NCBI GenBank assembly: GCA_001873845.1 | Contig: MNZY01000070.1 | Location: 1-11,450 of the forward strand | Source: Candidatus Altarchaeum sp. CG2_30_32_3053 | Lineage (GTDB): Archaea > Altiarchaeota > Altiarchaeia > Altiarchaeales > Altiarchaeaceae | DNA: 11,450 bases | Direction of reading: 5' to 3' | In this document: piece after piece, positions 2,764 to 11,450 of the stretch | Numbering within the stretch: the first letter of the stretch is position 1 | Layout: every line of letters starts with the position of its first letter | The notes under the pieces: generated by a model | What the model was told of the DNA's origin: nothing | Databases searched by the model: none | What the model saw: only the letters and a program-made list of their open reading frames with translations | Program-made: the position numbers and the translations under genes

Positions 2764-2778
2764 GTAATATAAATATTT

Positions 2779-2927
2779 AAATTTAATACAGCATAAATTC
2801 AGTAAATTTAATACAGCATAAATTCAGTAAATTTAATACAGCATAAATTCAGCATAATTTTAAATTTAATACAGCATAAATTCAGCATATTTAGCATAAA
2901 TTCAGCATAAGCAGCATAAATTCAGCC
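2779..2927. repeat. Tandem repeat array: the 25-bp unit 'aaatttaatacagcataaattcagY' x4 (2779-2803, 2804-2828, 2829-2853, 2862-2886), decaying into three 13-14-bp half-units '(a)gcataaattcagc' (2893-2927).
   Basis: Direct reading. Units 1 and 2 are identical. The core 'cagcataaattcag' occurs seven times. The array ends 3 nt before the ATG at 2931. Each unit contains a TATA-like 'aaatttaata'. Confidence 0.9.
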
Positions 2928-2930
2928 AAT

Positions 2931-3644
2931 ATGAATTTCATCCCGATAACTTATAAAAACACAAACCTGAATATATCTTTATACAAAGGAAATACAACGA
3001 CTGAAAGCATCCCTTTTAACAAAATTTTTAAAACCGTTGTTGAGGAAAGAAGTAAAATAGAGAAGGAAATAATAAAAAATCCGTTGTTTAAATATTCTCT
3101 TGAGCCGCTTAAACCCGATAATGACTCACCAGAAATAATTAAAAATATGTGTTATGCCTCAAATCTGGCAAATGTCGGGCCAATGGCAAGCGTTGCTGGG
3201 GCAATTGCAGAAATTTTATGTGAGAAATGTATTGGACTTGGATTTGATGCTGGGTTCATTGAAAACGGGGGAGATATTGCTCTGTTCGGGGACAGGAATT
3301 TTAAGATTCAGATTTACACAAAAAATTCACCGTTTTCAGACAAATTTTTCATACCTTTAAATCCAGCAAAATTATTCCAGGACAAAATTTTAGGTATATG
3401 TACATCCTCATCTTCTATAGGTCCGTCTGTGAGTTTTGGAGACAGCGATGCGACGACGATTATAGCAAATAGTCCTGCAATCGCAGATGCATTCGCGACC
3501 TCACTTGGAAATTTAGTTAAAAACGATGAAAAGTGTCTTGAGGATGTTATTGAATTCGGAAAGAAATTTAATGTAGTAAAAGGAATTTGTATAATTGTTA
3601 AGGATAAAATCGGGATGTGGAATGTCCGGCTGGAAAAATTTTAA
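2931..3644 (+). CDS. UPF0280 family protein (ApbE superfamily, COG2122-like), function unknown.
   Basis: 'NVGPMASVAGAIAE', '...ENGGDIALFGD...', 'GICTSSSSIGPSVSFGDSDATTIIANSPAIADAFATSLGN' and a C-terminal 'IVKDKIGMWNV' match my recollection of the archaeal UPF0280/ApbE-like family signature. The start codon abuts the tandem repeat array. Only 15 bp separate its stop from the Elp3 start. Confidence 0.7.
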   Translation: MNFIPITYKNTNLNISLYKGNTTTESIPFNKIFKTVVEERSKIEKEIIKNPLFKYSLEPLKPDNDSPEIIKNMCYASNLANVGPMASVAGAIAEILCEKCIGLGFDAGFIENGGDIALFGDRNFKIQIYTKNSPFSDKFFIPLNPAKLFQDKILGICTSSSSIGPSVSFGDSDATTIIANSPAIADAFATSLGNLVKNDEKCLEDVIEFGKKFNVVKGICIIVKDKIGMWNVRLEKF

Positions 3645-3659
3645 ATAAACTTTAAGGTT

Positions 3660-5387
3660 ATGGCTGTCAGGGATGATGAAAGGGATGATAAAAAGAGTGA
3701 TAAAAGGGATGATAAAAGGGATAATGAAAACAGGAAAAAGGTATGCAGAGAGATAATTAAAAAAATTTTAAGCGGCAGAATCATAAGCAGGGAAGCACTT
3801 GAAAAAGAAAAGTCCATTTATTGTGAGAAATATAGAATGCGGGAATATCTGAACAATCCAGAAATTTTAAATTCTGCGAACGACAGCGAAAGGGCAGAAA
3901 TTTTAAAAATTTTGCAGAAGAAACCGTCCCGAACTTACGCGGGAGTTACGGTAATTGCCTGTATGACTATGCCAGCGAGATGCCCTCACGGAAAATGTGC
4001 CTATTGTCCCGGGGGCGTTGAAATTGATATTCCCCAAAGTTATACCGGGAAAGAGCCATCAACGATGCGAGGCATCCAGTGTCATTTTGATTCCTATCTT
4101 GAAACAACCTCCCGGCTGTATCAGTATCACAAGCTTGGACATGCCATTGATAAAATTGAACTAATAATTATGGGCGGAACCCTGCCTGCACAAGATATTG
4201 ATTATATGGAATATTTTTCAAAGCGGTGTATTCAGGCAATGAATGAATTTTATGAAAATTTAAAAATTATTGAAAAATCAGGTGAGGAAAAATTTACTGA
4301 AAAATATAATGATGATAAGAACAGGTCTGACGGAGGAAAATTTCGCAAATTTCACTATCAGGAAGAAATACAGAGGGCGAATGAAAAAGCGAAAATAAGA
4401 TGTGTCGGACTGACTTTTGAATCAAGGCCAGATTATGCAAAAAAAGAGGAAATTCTGGGAATGTTAAAATGCGGGGCAACAAGGGTTGAGATGGGTGTTC
4501 AAAGTCCTTATGATTTTATTTATTCTATTGTCGATCGCGGGCATACTGTCCAGGATGTTATTGAATCAACTGCTTTATTAAAGGATTATGGATTAAAGGT
4601 TTGCTACCATATGATGCCTGGATTGCTTGGAAATTCCGAATACAGCAGGGCTCTTGATTTCAGGGGATTCGGAAAAATTGTCACAGATGAAAATTTCATG
4701 CCGGATATGTTAAAAATTTATCCGACTTTAATAATCAAAGGAACAAAATTTCATGATGAATACATTAAGGGAAATTTTGAACCATTAACAACGGAAAATG
4801 CGGTCCGGTTAATAACAGATGTTATGGCAGCACTTCCGAAATGGGTCAGGGTAATGAGGGTAATGCGGGACATTCCTGCTTATATGATTGAGGCGGGAAT
4901 TAAAACAAGTAATCTGGAACAGCTGGTTGACAAAAAATTAAAAGCCGGAAATTTAAAATGTATGGAAATAAGACACAGAGAGGTCAGGAATGAGAACATT
5001 GATTTTGACAATATAAGGTTGCTGCGTGAGGAGTATAATGCATCAAAAGGAAGGGAAATTTTTCTGAGTTATGAGGACATTGAAAATGATTTGCTGATTG
5101 GATTTTTACGGCTGAGAACACCTTCAAATTTTAACAAAACAAAAAATGTCTTTGTCAGGGAATTGCATATTTACGGGAAAGAGGTTAAAATCGGGGAAAA
5201 AGCAAAAGCAGATGAAATCCAGCACAGAGGGTTTGGGGGAAATTTACTTGCGGAGGCAGAAAGAATTTCCTGTGAAGAATTTGATGCGAAAAAAATTTCT
5301 GTAATGAGCGGAATAGGGGCAAGGGAATATTACAGGAAATTTAATTATAAAAAAGAGAAATTCTGGATGGTGAAAAATTTAAGTTAA
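3660..5387 (+). CDS. elp3: Elp3 homolog: a radical-SAM plus GNAT acetyltransferase enzyme, predicted tRNA U34 carboxymethyl-uridine synthase.
   Basis: The radical-SAM cluster motif 'CPHGKCAYCPGG' is the Elp3-specific CPHGKCxYCPGG variant. The C-terminal GNAT acetyl-CoA site is 'QHRGFGGNLLAEAERIS'. The 575-aa length and the layout match archaeal and eukaryotic Elp3. An N-terminal extension of about 25 aa (RDDK-type repeats) precedes the conserved start 'KKVCREIIKKILSG'. Confidence 0.9.
   Translation: MAVRDDERDDKKSDKRDDKRDNENRKKVCREIIKKILSGRIISREALEKEKSIYCEKYRMREYLNNPEILNSANDSERAEILKILQKKPSRTYAGVTVIACMTMPARCPHGKCAYCPGGVEIDIPQSYTGKEPSTMRGIQCHFDSYLETTSRLYQYHKLGHAIDKIELIIMGGTLPAQDIDYMEYFSKRCIQAMNEFYENLKIIEKSGEEKFTEKYNDDKNRSDGGKFRKFHYQEEIQRANEKAKIRCVGLTFESRPDYAKKEEILGMLKCGATRVEMGVQSPYDFIYSIVDRGHTVQDVIESTALLKDYGLKVCYHMMPGLLGNSEYSRALDFRGFGKIVTDENFMPDMLKIYPTLIIKGTKFHDEYIKGNFEPLTTENAVRLITDVMAALPKWVRVMRVMRDIPAYMIEAGIKTSNLEQLVDKKLKAGNLKCMEIRHREVRNENIDFDNIRLLREEYNASKGREIFLSYEDIENDLLIGFLRLRTPSNFNKTKNVFVRELHIYGKEVKIGEKAKADEIQHRGFGGNLLAEAERISCEEFDAKKISVMSGIGAREYYRKFNYKKEKFWMVKNLS
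3670..3730 (+). repeat. In-frame degenerate 12-13-bp tandem repeat (RGGGATGATAAAA x5) encoding the charged R/K-D-D-K/E extension of Elp3.
   Basis: Direct reading gives gggatgatgaaa, gggatgataaaaa, gagtgataaaa, gggatgataaaa and gggataatgaaaa. Confidence 0.7.
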
Positions 5388-5413: not shown

Positions 5414-7144
5414 TTACAGCCTCCTCAAAATATTTCCTAAAATATTCATAACATATACATTCAGTGATTTCCTGTTTCTTGGCCAGTTTAGTTCCCTGTT
5501 TTTATGAATTAATGACTTCATGGACTCATTAATCTCATCCCTTAATAAATTAATTTCCCGCTCATTGTCATTAATACCAATACCTGTTTTTGAAATTTGG
5601 GCAACCTTCTTCATAACATCTCTTGAAATTTCAACCTGTTTTTCTGTATTTTTAACATACCTGTCATCAACCATCTCATGTTTTCTTTTAATATGTGATA
5701 ATTTAACTGCTGTGTCATAAGTAAGATCAATAATATCATCAGGAGAAAGATTTTCTGTCCGATAGTTAAAAAAGTCCTTCCATGAGTATCTGTCAAAGGC
5801 ATTGTAATGTTCTTCAAGTGTCCTGTGCAAAACCACATAACCGTATCTGGCGGGATTTTCAAATGCGATGGATCCTGGGTCAAGAGTCGGGGCATATGGA
5901 GATATAAAAGGATAAACCTTATGTTCCCGTTCTCCGGAATTTTTAAATTTTTTAAATTTCCCGATAACTGAATCAATATAATCAAGTGTTCTGTAAATGC
6001 TTTTCTTACTCTGTTTTCCGAGTCCGAGCATAAAAAAAAGATCAAATTTATCGCAGTCATTGTTCAGTGCGATTTCTATGCTGTTTTCAACATCTTCATT
6101 TGTATAATTCTTTCCGGCGCAAAACCGCACATCATCAGAGGCGTCTTCCGGAGACATCTCAAGATTATAATGTGCAAATGTGCTCTTCAGAGTCACTGCA
6201 AATTCTTCTGTCAAGGGAGAAAATAACTCAAATACAACTGGCAGGTCAATCTTTTCTTTTTTTATTTTTTTAAATACCTCTTCATAATACCTTTTGCCGC
6301 CCATCCGTATGTCATTCAGAAAGAATACGGGATTTTTGATATATTCTTCATTCAGACGCAACTGCTCAATCACTTTATCCGGCTCCATAAATGCCGGCTT
6401 TTTGCGGTTGTATATTCGCTTATAGCATTCAGATGAGCCGCCGCAATTGACACAGTTATACAGGCATCCCTTTGAGGTAAGTATAGGCATTGTCGGTTCA
6501 TCAAGCCATGACCTGTAAGGCAGATTAGCGTCAATGTCCATATCCCTGATAATCAGTTTCAGCATAAATTTCGGGTCAATTACGAAATTAACAGTTTCAG
6601 GCACATTGGTTATGGGATTTGATTTGACAATATTGTTTTTTCTCCACGATAAATTCGGAATGTCTTCTTTATCGGTTTTGTTTAAATTTTCAATTAGTTT
6701 TAATAAAGGATATTCGCAGGAATCGCCTTTAAGCACATAATCAATAAACGAAAATTTAGTTAGAATTTCATCGTGATAGTATGTAGAAGTAAAGCCGCCA
6801 AATATAACTGGTGTATTCGGATGAAATTTTTTGCATATCTTTGCGATTTCAATTGCACCGTGAAGATGGGCCATCCAGTGAAGGTCTATGCAGAATGCCT
6901 CTGCATTTAGTCGTTTTATAAATTTTTCTGCATCAAATTTTTCGCTGTTTAGCATCTTCAGGGCTATATTTACAATCCTCGCCCTGTGTCCGTGCCGCTC
7001 AAGATAATGTGCCATTGATACAAATCCCATGGGATACATTTCAAACACAGGTGTTGACGGGACCGCTTCGCTCATTGCGCCTATAAATACCGGACGCTTG
7101 CGGAAGTCGTAAATGCCTGGCGGATGTAAAAATACAGTTGTCAT
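5414..7144 (-). CDS. B12(cobalamin)-binding-domain radical-SAM enzyme (class B radical-SAM family), substrate unknown.
   Basis: The N-terminal B12-binding-like domain reads 'YPMGFVSMAHYLERHGHRARIVNIA ... PVIFGGFTSTYYHDEIL ... VLKGDSCEYPLLKLIENL'. The canonical CX3CX2C radical-SAM motif is 'TSKGCLYNCVNCGG'. The protein is 576 aa. Its start codon overlaps the stop of the upstream small gene in an ATGA arrangement. Confidence 0.85.
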   Translation of the reverse strand: MTTVFLHPPGIYDFRKRPVFIGAMSEAVPSTPVFEMYPMGFVSMAHYLERHGHRARIVNIALKMLNSEKFDAEKFIKRLNAEAFCIDLHWMAHLHGAIEIAKICKKFHPNTPVIFGGFTSTYYHDEILTKFSFIDYVLKGDSCEYPLLKLIENLNKTDKEDIPNLSWRKNNIVKSNPITNVPETVNFVIDPKFMLKLIIRDMDIDANLPYRSWLDEPTMPILTSKGCLYNCVNCGGSSECYKRIYNRKKPAFMEPDKVIEQLRLNEEYIKNPVFFLNDIRMGGKRYYEEVFKKIKKEKIDLPVVFELFSPLTEEFAVTLKSTFAHYNLEMSPEDASDDVRFCAGKNYTNEDVENSIEIALNNDCDKFDLFFMLGLGKQSKKSIYRTLDYIDSVIGKFKKFKNSGEREHKVYPFISPYAPTLDPGSIAFENPARYGYVVLHRTLEEHYNAFDRYSWKDFFNYRTENLSPDDIIDLTYDTAVKLSHIKRKHEMVDDRYVKNTEKQVEISRDVMKKVAQISKTGIGINDNEREINLLRDEINESMKSLIHKNRELNWPRNRKSLNVYVMNILGNILRRL

Positions 7145-9429: not shown

Positions 9430-9729
9430 ATGGGAAAAGAAATAAAGAAATTCAACACAGTTGCGAAATTAAGGATAATGCCAAAGGGAACCGATGTTGA
9501 CTTAAAGAAAATGGAAAGCGATATCAGGGAAATTTTAAGCAAATGCAGAAGCAGTAAATTTCATTCCTCGGAAATAAAACCGATTGCCTTTGGTTTGAGT
9601 GCCCTGGAAACAGTCATATTAATCACGGAAGCAGACAGCGAACTGGAAGGTATAGAGGACAAAATTTCAGACCTACCGTATGCAGAAAGTGTTACGGAAA
9701 CGGATATATACTTATTAAGCGATATTTAA
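9430..9729 (+). CDS. ef1b: Translation elongation factor aEF-1beta (guanine nucleotide exchange factor for aEF-1alpha).
   Basis: 'VAKLRIMPKGTDVDL...' together with 'PIAFGLSALETVILI' matches the archaeal EF-1beta pattern (KIKVMPESPEVDL and EPIAFGLKAL). The protein is about 99 aa. Confidence 0.85.
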   Translation: MGKEIKKFNTVAKLRIMPKGTDVDLKKMESDIREILSKCRSSKFHSSEIKPIAFGLSALETVILITEADSELEGIEDKISDLPYAESVTETDIYLLSDI

Positions 9730-9747
9730 TTATTAAGCGATATTTAA
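9712..9747 (+). repeat. Perfect 18-bp tandem duplication (ttattaagcgatatttaa x2) spanning the EF-1beta stop codon.
   Basis: Direct reading. The first copy encodes the C-terminal LLSDI plus stop. The second copy repeats the same residues and stop immediately downstream. Confidence 0.9.
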
Positions 9748-9756
9748 AATTTATAC

Positions 9757-9772
9757 TTTACGGGCTAATTAT
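9757..9772 (+). promoter_or_regulatory. Candidate TATA box for the L7Ae-S28e-L24e-ndk operon ('aaATTTATACTttacggg').
   Basis: It shares the 'atttatact' octamer with the TATA element at 161-169, and 'tttacggg' also occurs at 26-33. It would give a CA-rich 5' leader of about 95 nt for L7Ae. Confidence 0.3.
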
Positions 9773-9783
9773 TATACATAGAA

Positions 9784-9843
9784 CATACAAATACACAAAT
9801 AATACAAATACACAAAATACACAAATAATACAAATACACAAAA
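9784..9843 (+). repeat. CA-rich tandem repeat: a 26-bp unit 'tacacaaataatacaaatacacaaaa' x2, preceded by a partial copy, inside a G-depleted spacer.
   Basis: Direct reading. The perfect copies are at 9792-9817 and 9818-9843. The surrounding spacer 9748-9884 has almost no G. Confidence 0.85.
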
Positions 9844-9884
9844 ATAAAACCGATAATCAAAATATTAAACAAAAATCAAAACAA

Positions 9885-10253
9885 ATGAAAATGGGTTATG
9901 TAAAATTTGAAGCACCTGCGGAATTACAGATGAAGGCGTTAGAGGTTTTGGAAACCGCAAAAAATACGGGCAAAATAAAGAAGGGAGCAAACGAAGTAAC
10001 AAAAGCAGTGGAAAGGAAGGTTGCAAAATTTGTAGTAATTGCAGCAGATGTGATTCCGTTTGAAAATGTTATGCATCTACCAATGATATGTGATGAAAAG
10101 GAAATTCCTTACCTGTATGTCAATAAGAAAGAAGATGTCGGAAAGGCGATTGGCTTAAAGGTTCCGTGTTCAGCAGCATGTGTTATGGAGGAAGGCAAAG
10201 GAAAAGAGATACTTGCTGATGTTAAGAATAAACTAAAAGCAATTAAAAAGTAA
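9885..10253 (+). CDS. rpl7ae: Ribosomal protein L7Ae, also a K-turn-binding subunit of box C/D and H/ACA sRNPs and RNase P.
   Basis: 'KKGANEVTKAVERKVAKFVVIAADV...HLPMICDEKEIPYLYVNKKEDVGKAIG' is the hallmark L7Ae/L30e block. The start could be the ATG at 9885 or the one at 9891. Confidence 0.9.
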   Translation: MKMGYVKFEAPAELQMKALEVLETAKNTGKIKKGANEVTKAVERKVAKFVVIAADVIPFENVMHLPMICDEKEIPYLYVNKKEDVGKAIGLKVPCSAACVMEEGKGKEILADVKNKLKAIKK

Positions 10254-11200: not shown

Positions 11201-11376
11201 AGGATATATGATTTCAAAAACGGAATTTTGAAAGATACGATTATATAAATGATTTTCAAAATTGTAGAGATTTTAAAAATACACAAAAGAAGTAAGGGCA
11301 AAGATCAAAAATTTAAAAATTTAATTTAAAAATCTTTAAAATAGATATTGTAGATATGTTTAAGGAGCAAAAAGTG

Positions 11377-11450
11377 ATGACTCTTGATATATTATCCAAA
11401 AAAGCAAAATGCTCAGGAAAGACAATTCTAAGAAGACTTAAGGAACATGG
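11377..11450 (+). CDS. 5' end of a downstream gene (partial, runs off the window). A possible HTH-type regulator, but it is not the aIF5B that often follows ndk.
   Basis: AGGAG at 11363-11367 lies 9 nt upstream of the ATG. An in-frame GTG sits at 11374. The N-terminus reads 'MTLDILSKKAKCSGKTILRRLKEH'. Only 24 codons are visible. Confidence 0.3.
   Translation, partial: MTLDILSKKAKCSGKTILRRLKEH

Follow-up and report, generated by a model that had tools for sequence, protein, structure and literature searches.

Promoters that vary by means of repeats are well known from yeast and from bacterial pathogens. Bacterial examples include a TAAA tract ahead of nadA and 7-bp repeats ahead of hmw1/hmw2. 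Short boxes in several copies also form multi-site archaeal operators, e.g. the three regularly spaced boxes of Ss-LrpB, as well as the iterons of plasmids. In yeast promoters, natural variation of the repeat copy number tunes expression in a graded way, largely through nucleosome occupancy. Unstable tandem repeats in these promoters are said to confer transcriptional evolvability, as Vinces et al. reportedly described in Science in 2009. For a combined divergent promoter, the TA repeats of Haemophilus influenzae hifA/hifB are an example (van Ham 1993, listed in PMC11868660). The same recent review of phase variation names archaeal phylogenies as an area in which such loci could be surveyed in the future (PMC11868660). 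Our literature search returned nothing on archaeal promoter VNTRs or on repeat-mediated promoter variation via multiplied TBP/TFB sites, and nothing on tandem repeats or promoters of Altiarchaeum.

Here, we analyze an array of direct repeats in a stretch of 11,450 nucleotides of DNA, the whole of which is called the window; it comes from Candidatus Altiarchaeum hamiconexum, an archaeon of the subsurface that has not been brought into culture. According to the explanation that we favor, and to which we give about an even chance, the array is a lineage-specific, promoter-derived VNTR of the UPF0280-elp3 operon that would change how many entry sites are open to TBP/TFB and how long the leader is. 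Bacterial SSR/VNTR contingency loci resemble it in two respects: they are head-to-tail tracts within promoters or leaders (the present one being located in a divergent spacer, too), and the copy number varies between near-identical strains, recurring on one haplotype. The differences are equally plain. The units measure 25 or 33 bp instead of 1-7 bp, and each of them appears to be a whole archaeal core-promoter module and not the spacer between a -35 and a -10 element; initiation is of the archaeal TBP/TFB type, and the genes concerned form a UPF0280/Elp3 operon, whereas the bacterial loci control surface or restriction-modification genes. With the yeast promoters the array shares AT-rich, minisatellite-type repeats in a TATA-dependent promoter, but the Altiarchaeum repeats themselves contain the TATA-like box. 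Like Ss-LrpB operators and iterons, it consists of several near-identical short boxes in direct orientation within a control region; unlike them, it shows no dyad symmetry, no multi-box layout in orthologs and no helical phasing of its 25-bp units, no regulator or replication gene is adjacent, and its copy number is variable.

Genes and anatomy of the array

The array is located in the intergenic spacer between SPFH and UPF0280, which comprises 223 bp with a GC content of 21%. On the minus strand, in divergent orientation, lies a gene of the SPFH/Band_7 family (1898-2707), followed by a GT2 glycosyltransferase gene (930-1871). The first gene downstream of the array, on the plus strand, encodes a UPF0280 protein of the ApbE superfamily (PF27030; 237 aa; 2931-3644); 15 bp 3' of it begins a gene for an Elp3-type radical-SAM protein (575 aa; 3660-5387, plus strand), and the two are probably co-transcribed. 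These four gene calls, first made in a sequence-only reading of the window, were borne out. The UPF0280 protein is identical to the 'UPF0280 family protein' of Candidatus Altiarchaeum hamiconexum at NCBI, and its nearest relatives among species-representative genomes belong to three other Altiarchaeales MAGs, i.e. A3, HURL_140 and GA_1_1. The start codon (ATG at 2931, directly preceded by CCAAT; 2926-2933, plus strand) is backed by an N-terminus (M..YKNTNLNISLYK) that is conserved in four other Altiarchaeales lineages. The UPF0280-Elp3 operon serves tRNA (wobble) modification, and its genes are of a housekeeping type that is atypical for contingency variation; the gene classes characteristic of contingency loci (surface, host-interaction, restriction-modification) are not represented downstream of the array, where only the UPF0280/ApbE-like and Elp3 genes follow. 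Other genes of the window encode GluRS, EF-1beta, L7Ae, S28e, L24e, NDK and a PF0610-type protein, a set that marks its source as archaeal; a B12-radical-SAM gene is also present.

The direct repeats span positions 2778-2925 and thereby occupy 148 of the 223 intergenic bases, all on the UPF0280 side. The sequence-only reading had let the array fill the divergent promoter; this holds for the UPF0280 side, but the 70 bp next to SPFH are outside it. TRF confirms a strong tandem array at this place. At 2778-2860 it reports a period of 25 (score 150, with 3.3 copies and 96% matches), at 2872-2926 a period of 20 (score 89, with 2.8 copies), and it also detects a degenerate period of 11 (12.7 copies, 63% matches, at 2785-2926) with the sub-repeat CAGCATAAATT. 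Within 2789-2925, the 14-bp core CAGCATAAATTCAG occurs five times exactly and once with one mismatch. By chance, 0.20 matches (with at most two mismatches) are expected, and none of 200 shuffled sequences attained the observed count. In size (about 10-100 bp), in head-to-tail order and in an abundance far beyond chance, the units thus correspond to those of a minisatellite or VNTR.

The unit structure had been described differently and needs correction. Units 1-3 are perfect tandem 25-mers TAAATTTAATACAGCATAAATTCAG (2778-2802, 2803-2827 and 2828-2852, together 2778-2852, plus strand), each composed of a TATA-like AT box (AAATTTAATA) and the 14-bp core. Unit 4 (2861-2885, plus strand) is identical to them; all four 25-mers are therefore the same, whereas one change had been attributed to two of them. 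The TT preceding unit 4 completes a TTTAAATTTAATA box. Between units 3 and 4 lies an 8-bp filler CATAATTT (2853-2860, plus strand): together with the preceding CAG it is a truncated copy of the 11-bp sub-repeat, and together with the following 25-mer it makes up a 33-bp higher-order unit, which is duplicated in 5-unit alleles. Where three 13-bp half-units had been proposed, we find two 20-bp proximal units on the plus strand, CATATTTAGCATAAATTCAG (2886-2905), i.e. CATATT plus TAGCATAAATTCAG, and CATAAGCAGCATAAATTCAG (2906-2925), i.e. CATAAG plus CAGCATAAATTCAG. The last core ends 5 nt (CCAAT) and not 3 nt before the ATG. The proposed TATA-like motif per unit is indeed carried by each long unit in the form of AAATTTAATA; in the proximal units, CATAAATT is found at -36..-29 and -16..-9 of the UPF0280 ATG. 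The boxes of the long units differ in sequence. That of the long unit nearest the gene reads TTTAAATT (2859-2866), while units 2 and 3 start with AGTAAATT instead, and these two may have weaker boxes than the TTTAAATT-type units. In units 1 and 4, TTAAATTTAA is a perfect palindrome.

As already proposed, the array is non-coding, and it is no CRISPR array: there are no spacers, the units abut, the 11-bp stretches between cores are identical, and the window contains no cas genes. Several other classes were considered and rejected. No Rfam family or tRNA matches the window, and the array does not form a structured RNA leader or riboswitch (the fold of 2778-2960 has -11.5 kcal/mol, z = -0.19 against shuffled sequences). 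Folded as single-stranded DNA, the region reaches z = -2.0, but nothing more than the weakly palindromic TTAAATTTAA accounts for this value, and the centroid contains no structure. Curved DNA from phased A/T tracts is not indicated, with no power at 10-11 bp (z <= 0.3). A replication origin is equally rejected: neither the window nor the 16-kb contigs contain an Orc1/Cdc6 gene, and the repeats are direct and devoid of the G-rich element of ORB-type origins. The cumulative GC skew has a local minimum that coincides with the divergent gene orientation, and a second one at about 9000. Finally, a MITE is excluded by the anatomy of the array.

Derivation from a single-copy promoter

Orthologous loci of the Horonobe type (HURL; L012, L014, L015 and L018) show what is probably the ancestral arrangement. 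Their SPFH-UPF0280 spacers are 100-113 nt long, contain no array according to TRF, and end with ATATAAATATTTAAAATTTAATGCGATATAAATTTATCTAATATG, which equals one unit: an AT box is followed by a 14-bp segment and this, after 5 nt, by the ATG. These single-copy orthologs have a TATA-like octamer TTTAAAAT at -33..-26 relative to the ATG. All lineages share the central ATAAATT of the core, at -15..-9 relative to the ATG; its CAG flanks are not preserved in the sister lineages. If the spacer of the window is collapsed to one unit, it comprises 100 nt, exactly the length of the L018 spacer, with which it aligns colinearly at 86% identity (87% in the adjacent SPFH coding sequence). Because of this colinearity, equal length and identity, the 25-mer is a duplicated piece of the gene's own upstream region and not an imported element. 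The earlier suggestion of a tandemly duplicated promoter is in agreement with these results, as the orthologs have one unit at promoter distance.

In archaeal promoters, TATA is centred at about -27, BRE at about -33 and an AT-rich proximal element at about -10 relative to the start site, and many archaeal mRNAs are leaderless (PMC5316973). Core promoters of this architecture with leaderless mRNAs are also treated in two further sources (PMC4983044, PMC2151090). Because the octamer at -33..-26 matches the published geometry, we infer a leaderless or near-leaderless core promoter as the ancestral module, with the 25-mer corresponding to its TATA-like box and its proximal segment. Both assignments follow position and AT-richness in a spacer of 21% GC, where TATA-like strings are frequent, and that of ATAAATT at -15..-9 to the proximal element depends, in addition, on the presumed leaderless start. 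Among the first genes of the fetched Altiarchaeum loci, the majority show an AT box at about -40..-22 and lack a Shine-Dalgarno motif. The single-copy orthologs of UPF0280 and the SPFH gene would fit an archaeal core promoter in the position of the AT octamer (-33..-26), in the AT-rich segment at about -15..-9 and in the missing Shine-Dalgarno motif. The window departs from it in that it contains four complete and two partial copies of the module, and in that 60-72 bp separate the ATG from the closest complete TATA-like box, compared with the usual 30 bp or so.

The 70 bp of the spacer next to SPFH (2708-2777) are conserved across lineages and invariant between alleles. This part contains three TATAAAT boxes and an 11-bp repeat TATAAATTTGT (3.4 copies, 2726-2763), and its right end reads ATATAAATATT directly before unit 1. 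A TATA-like octamer TTTATAAA on the minus strand (2733-2740) is placed exactly at -33..-26 of the SPFH ATG. These observations are relevant to the question of which genes the array may affect. It could act mainly on SPFH-GT2, either as an upstream element or as a variable spacer between back-to-back promoters, in analogy to hifA/hifB. The array is indeed situated in the shared divergent spacer, 70-218 bp upstream of the SPFH ATG; the palindrome TTAAATTTAA of units 1 and 4 could let TBP load either way, and GT2 glycosyltransferases are common phase-variable genes in bacteria. Yet the TATA-like box of SPFH and the surrounding 70 bp are outside the array and constant, and the array is made from the promoter on the UPF0280 side and grows on that side only. 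We therefore judge this explanation very unlikely, and the direct control of SPFH-GT2 that had been proposed is unlikely with an SPFH promoter inside the invariant segment. The SPFH-GT2 pair is membrane- or glycan-related, but, again, its promoter is not part of the array.

Copy-number variation among populations

The spacer was extracted from 17 independent assemblies that originate from megahit, SPAdes, JGI and NCBI pipelines; unit counts given here stand for the consensus allele per sample. An identical 237-aa UPF0280 protein and an identical SPFH protein are present on many contigs. Ten of the 17 assemblies have four of the long units and four have five (L005, L008, L044 and L047), the extra copy being the 33-bp unit-plus-filler. 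Two units are found in two assemblies (L007, L048), and a single unit, with a G>T change of its own, in one (L002). None of the 17 shows a change in CCAAT or in the two proximal 20-bp units. In one further MAG (L040), an N gap is located inside the array. Outside the array, the flanks are about 99.9% identical, with 3-13 substitutions relative to the window in 11.4 kb, and the only other differences in length within these 11.4 kb are 1-bp homopolymer changes, nothing of 2 bp or above being seen. The copy number hence varies among close relatives while the flanks stay constant, as is characteristic of a VNTR. Expansion and contraction had been suggested together with a comparison of related genomes, and this comparison yields 1, 2, 4 or 5 units on an otherwise nearly identical background.

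One 1.4-kb flank haplotype (CGTA|GTACT) bears 1, 2, 4 and 5 units, and the 5-unit allele occurs on at least three flank haplotypes. Because all four counts share one haplotype, length change at the array seems to be fast and recurrent relative to point mutation, which suggests a high rate of tract-length change. Such recurrent change on one haplotype is compatible with neutrality and is no demonstration of it. Compared to the 4-unit form, all length variants differ by +33, -58 or -83 bp, and each of them corresponds to an exchange that involves unit 4, i.e. the one after the filler. Variants of +/-25 bp within the perfect triple run do not occur in the 17 assemblies, which is odd for simple slippage.

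Short-read assemblers may collapse or expand repeat copies, and some assemblies are in fact broken or gapped at the array: besides the Ns in L040, the contig of L023 ends 32 bp past it. Several findings speak against an artefact of this kind. Arrays with one or two units, including the proximal ones, measure at most 91 bp, and together with unique flanks they are contained in single 141-mers of k141 contigs; because such 141-mers must occur in reads, the short alleles are, by this k-mer reasoning, probably real. The 5-unit allele has a filler-unit-filler junction, which the 4-unit form lacks and which was recovered by both megahit and SPAdes in four samples, and the 1-unit allele is distinguished by its own SNP. 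Taken together, we regard an assembly origin of the length variation as extremely improbable.

Restriction to one promoter

Elsewhere in the window, the core has no counterpart except for a match with two mismatches inside the B12-radical-SAM gene at 6560, and it was not found elsewhere in the fetched Altiarchaeum DNA. The search for further genomic copies that had been proposed earlier thus gave none in the Altiarchaeum DNA searched. A scan for two cores in JGI metagenome contigs returned 20 loci, of which only L023 is the locus described here; the other 19 belong to unrelated organisms (GC 0.31-0.65) and are chance-similar microsatellites. In viral contigs, the same scan gave 0 matches. Within the DNA searched, the repeat is hence of local origin and neither dispersed nor mobile, and with a core restricted to this locus a dispersed repeat or a regulon is rejected.

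The sequence-only reading had also proposed cooperative binding by a repeat-recognising factor. The array would then be a multi-site operator, the core CAGCATAAATTCAG being bound by a sequence-specific regulator of the iteron or Lrp-like type that represses or activates the operon. Some features fit: six near-identical cores lie between the distal TATA box and the ATG, ATAAATT is the part of the core that all lineages have kept, and the proximal cores are 20 bp apart, i.e. about two helical turns. The core, however, is without dyad symmetry (only 4 of 7 position pairs are self-complementary), its CAG flanks have not been kept in the sister lineages, and orthologs have one copy each and neither an array nor another multi-site layout. 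The spacing of 25 bp amounts to 2.4 turns, with no phasing at 10-11 bp (z <= 0.3). No regulator gene is adjacent; no second site was found in the fetched Altiarchaeum DNA, and the two-core pattern is confined to this locus among Altiarchaeum contigs and absent from the viral ones. For these reasons, a role as operator is decidedly unlikely.

Other arrays in the window offer a comparison. A 26-bp repeat (2.1 copies) is located upstream of L7Ae (9785-9847), an 18-bp repeat (2.5 copies) at the stop codon of EF-1beta, and a coding 12-bp repeat in Elp3. All of them are constant in length in every spanning assembly. A general hypervariability of arrays in the genome is thereby rejected: the array upstream of L7Ae has 213 nt in each spanning assembly, and the deviation in L008 is an N gap.

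In a second lineage of Altiarchaeum, this promoter is occupied by an array of another kind, with units of 13-15 bp that come from the BRE/TATA portion; L013 (GA_1_1) contains 9.7 copies of this unit and L016 contains 3.5 copies. At the UPF0280 promoters of L011 (A3) and L017, no array is found. Because L013 and L016 have a different array there, the UPF0280 promoter was expanded at least two times independently. Either the low-complexity AT sequence is intrinsically slippery, or variation is tolerated or favored at this promoter.

Model of array evolution and expression

The promoter-derived VNTR that we favor could have evolved and could act as follows. The ancestral state, as sister lineages still show it, would have been a single module in which a TATA-like box rich in AT was followed by a proximal segment of 14 bp, likewise AT-rich, and by 5 nt before the ATG. 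Multiplication of this module took place in the hamiconexum lineage, likely by slippage or unequal recombination, for which an internal 11-bp quasi-repeat (CAGCATAAATT / CAGCCAATATG) may have been the seed. The outcome would be the present form, in which 1, 2, 4 or 5 full TATA-bearing 25-bp copies precede two constant proximal copies of 20 bp without the long TATA box. Each full unit would then be a potential landing site for TBP/TFB, and the copy number would determine how many start sites there are and how long a leader without Shine-Dalgarno motif becomes. A start about 25 bp downstream of TTTAAATT at 2859-2866 would give such a leader of about 40 nt, and with each unit farther from the gene it would grow, by 33, 25 and 25 nt in turn. 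For the four units, starts at this distance from the box are predicted near 2809, 2834, 2859 and 2892. Another possibility is that the invariant proximal unit, with CATAAATT at -36..-29, serves as a weak near-leaderless promoter.

The footprint of a TBP-TFB complex measures roughly 24 bp, that of the complete initiation complex about 60 bp. Because TBP/TFB could fill all adjacent units, but polymerase could not do so simultaneously, a change in copy number would be expected to shift the output in a graded manner, up or down, and not to work as a clean switch. The array would thus be a graded modifier of operon expression and not a designed on/off switch. The sequence-only reading had suggested a phase-variable expression switch, for which UPF0280 and Elp3 would be unusual targets.

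What is more challenging is the distinction from an inert minisatellite. In that case, the same slippage or recombination would operate, only the proximal module would fire, and the copy number of the silent upstream units would drift neutrally. The constancy of the proximal 45 bp (the two 20-bp units and CCAAT) in all 17 assemblies points in this direction, as does CATAAATT at -36..-29 of the ATG, which is near promoter distance and could be the sole start. The unrelated arrays at other AT-rich spacers (L7Ae, L013/L016) suggest a general mutational tendency of such low-complexity DNA, and the downstream genes are of the housekeeping type. On the other side, the variable units share the TTTAAATTTAATA box that is found at promoter distance in the single-copy orthologs; because boxes of this kind should attract archaeal TBP/TFB, complete silence of these units is unlikely. 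Furthermore, the array is the sole length-variable site in 11.4 kb, where the other arrays are constant. On balance, we consider the inert alternative somewhat unlikely, though it is the one among the rival explanations that deserves most attention.

A further step would be to see the promoter-derived VNTR as an archaeal locus of the contingency type, a hypermutable minisatellite in which whole TATA/proximal modules are gained and lost and near-clonal sub-populations arise with different heritable expression of UPF0280-Elp3 and possibly SPFH-GT2. We think this unlikely; if true, the independent array in the other Altiarchaeum lineage would speak for recurrent selection for tunability.

Assemblies break or gap at this array, and some caution is advised when they are used here. 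Even if the copies are silent, the array would still provide a high-resolution strain marker for tracking Altiarchaeum populations. Beyond this, the locus is a natural allelic series with 1, 2, 4 and 5 copies of an intact TATA-type module in an otherwise identical background, and Candidatus Altiarchaeum can be sampled as nearly pure biofilms. Because both come together in this organism, the effects of tandem core promoters on archaeal initiation and on leaderless versus leadered translation would be testable in natural populations.

Repeats in the non-coding regions of the window

The 70 bp of the divergent spacer nearest to SPFH (2708-2777) resemble the Horonobe-type sister lineage to about the same degree as the SPFH coding sequence does. 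Three TATAAAT boxes occur in this segment, together with a repeat of 11-bp period (TATAAATTTGT, 3.4 copies; 2726-2763). A 1-bp homopolymer polymorphism (A3/A4, at about 2729-2731) is the sole indel of the spacer besides the variation of the promoter array.

Another tandem array, which is A/C-rich, lies upstream of L7Ae (9785-9847, also 9839-9891); its 26-bp unit is present in 2.1 copies of 100% identity, with sub-periods of 9 and 17 bp. With a TATA-like ATATTTAAAATTTATAC (about 9742-9757) on one side and the start codon of L7Ae on the other, the array probably makes up a leader of repetitive sequence, about 100 nt long. No length change was observed: the anchored stretch measures 213 nt in every assembly that spans it, while two contigs of the same locus (L005, L006) stop within the array and a third (L008) has an N gap there.

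Repeats within coding sequences

At the end of the EF-1beta gene, an 18-bp unit (TTATTAAGCGATATTTAA, 2.5 copies; 9703-9747) runs across the stop codon (ORF end 9729), so that the 3' end of the gene and its stop are duplicated; this repeat is the same in all assemblies compared. The Elp3 gene carries a coding tandem repeat at its extreme N-terminus (3669-3745), which can be described as a 12-bp unit (AGGGATGATAAA) in 4.5 copies or a 36-bp unit in 2.2 copies, and which encodes a charged low-complexity extension. The protein has 575 aa in the window versus 562 aa in the A3 relative.

Homologs and look-alikes

In the Horonobe-type lineage, the UPF0280 proteins are longer (268 aa, L014 3001-3807; 284 aa, L018 2117-2971) than the 237-aa protein of the window and depart from it beyond residue 55 or so (…EPVEINHLTSAHFVPL…), a divergence indicative of an insertion in this lineage. 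In the GA_1_1 relative (L013), an MITE-like element of about 200 bp (3641-3840) lies within that lineage's own promoter array; it is bounded by perfect terminal inverted repeats of 12 bp (GTAACTATTCAG ... CTGAATAGTTAC), and the orthologous UPF0280 gene is found downstream.

Pure 11-bp microsatellites with CAGCATAAATT-like units occur in unrelated organisms with a GC content of 0.37-0.40 (metagenome contigs L020, L029, L031; L036, L038). L020 and L031 contain three copies and L029 at least five, apparently at one shared locus. Their likeness to the Altiarchaeum core is a product of chance.

Strain-level synteny and translation initiation

All contigs with the UPF0280 promoter-array locus are at most 20 kb long. 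Synteny between strains is broken at both window ends (1-150; 11357-11450; contigs L001, L002, L005, L007): the neighbor upstream of the DUF3368-like gene is, depending on the contig, DUF460, an SMC/Rad50-like gene or an amidohydrolase, and an insertion sequence (HTH transposase and rve integrase) starts downstream of NDK.

In the 70 nt preceding each of about 40 genes from four Altiarchaeum loci (L001, L014, L016, L017), operon-internal genes included, no Shine-Dalgarno-like motif was detected, and the typical start context is A-rich (AAA ATG). These features suggest that Shine-Dalgarno-independent initiation is the norm in the Altiarchaeum group.
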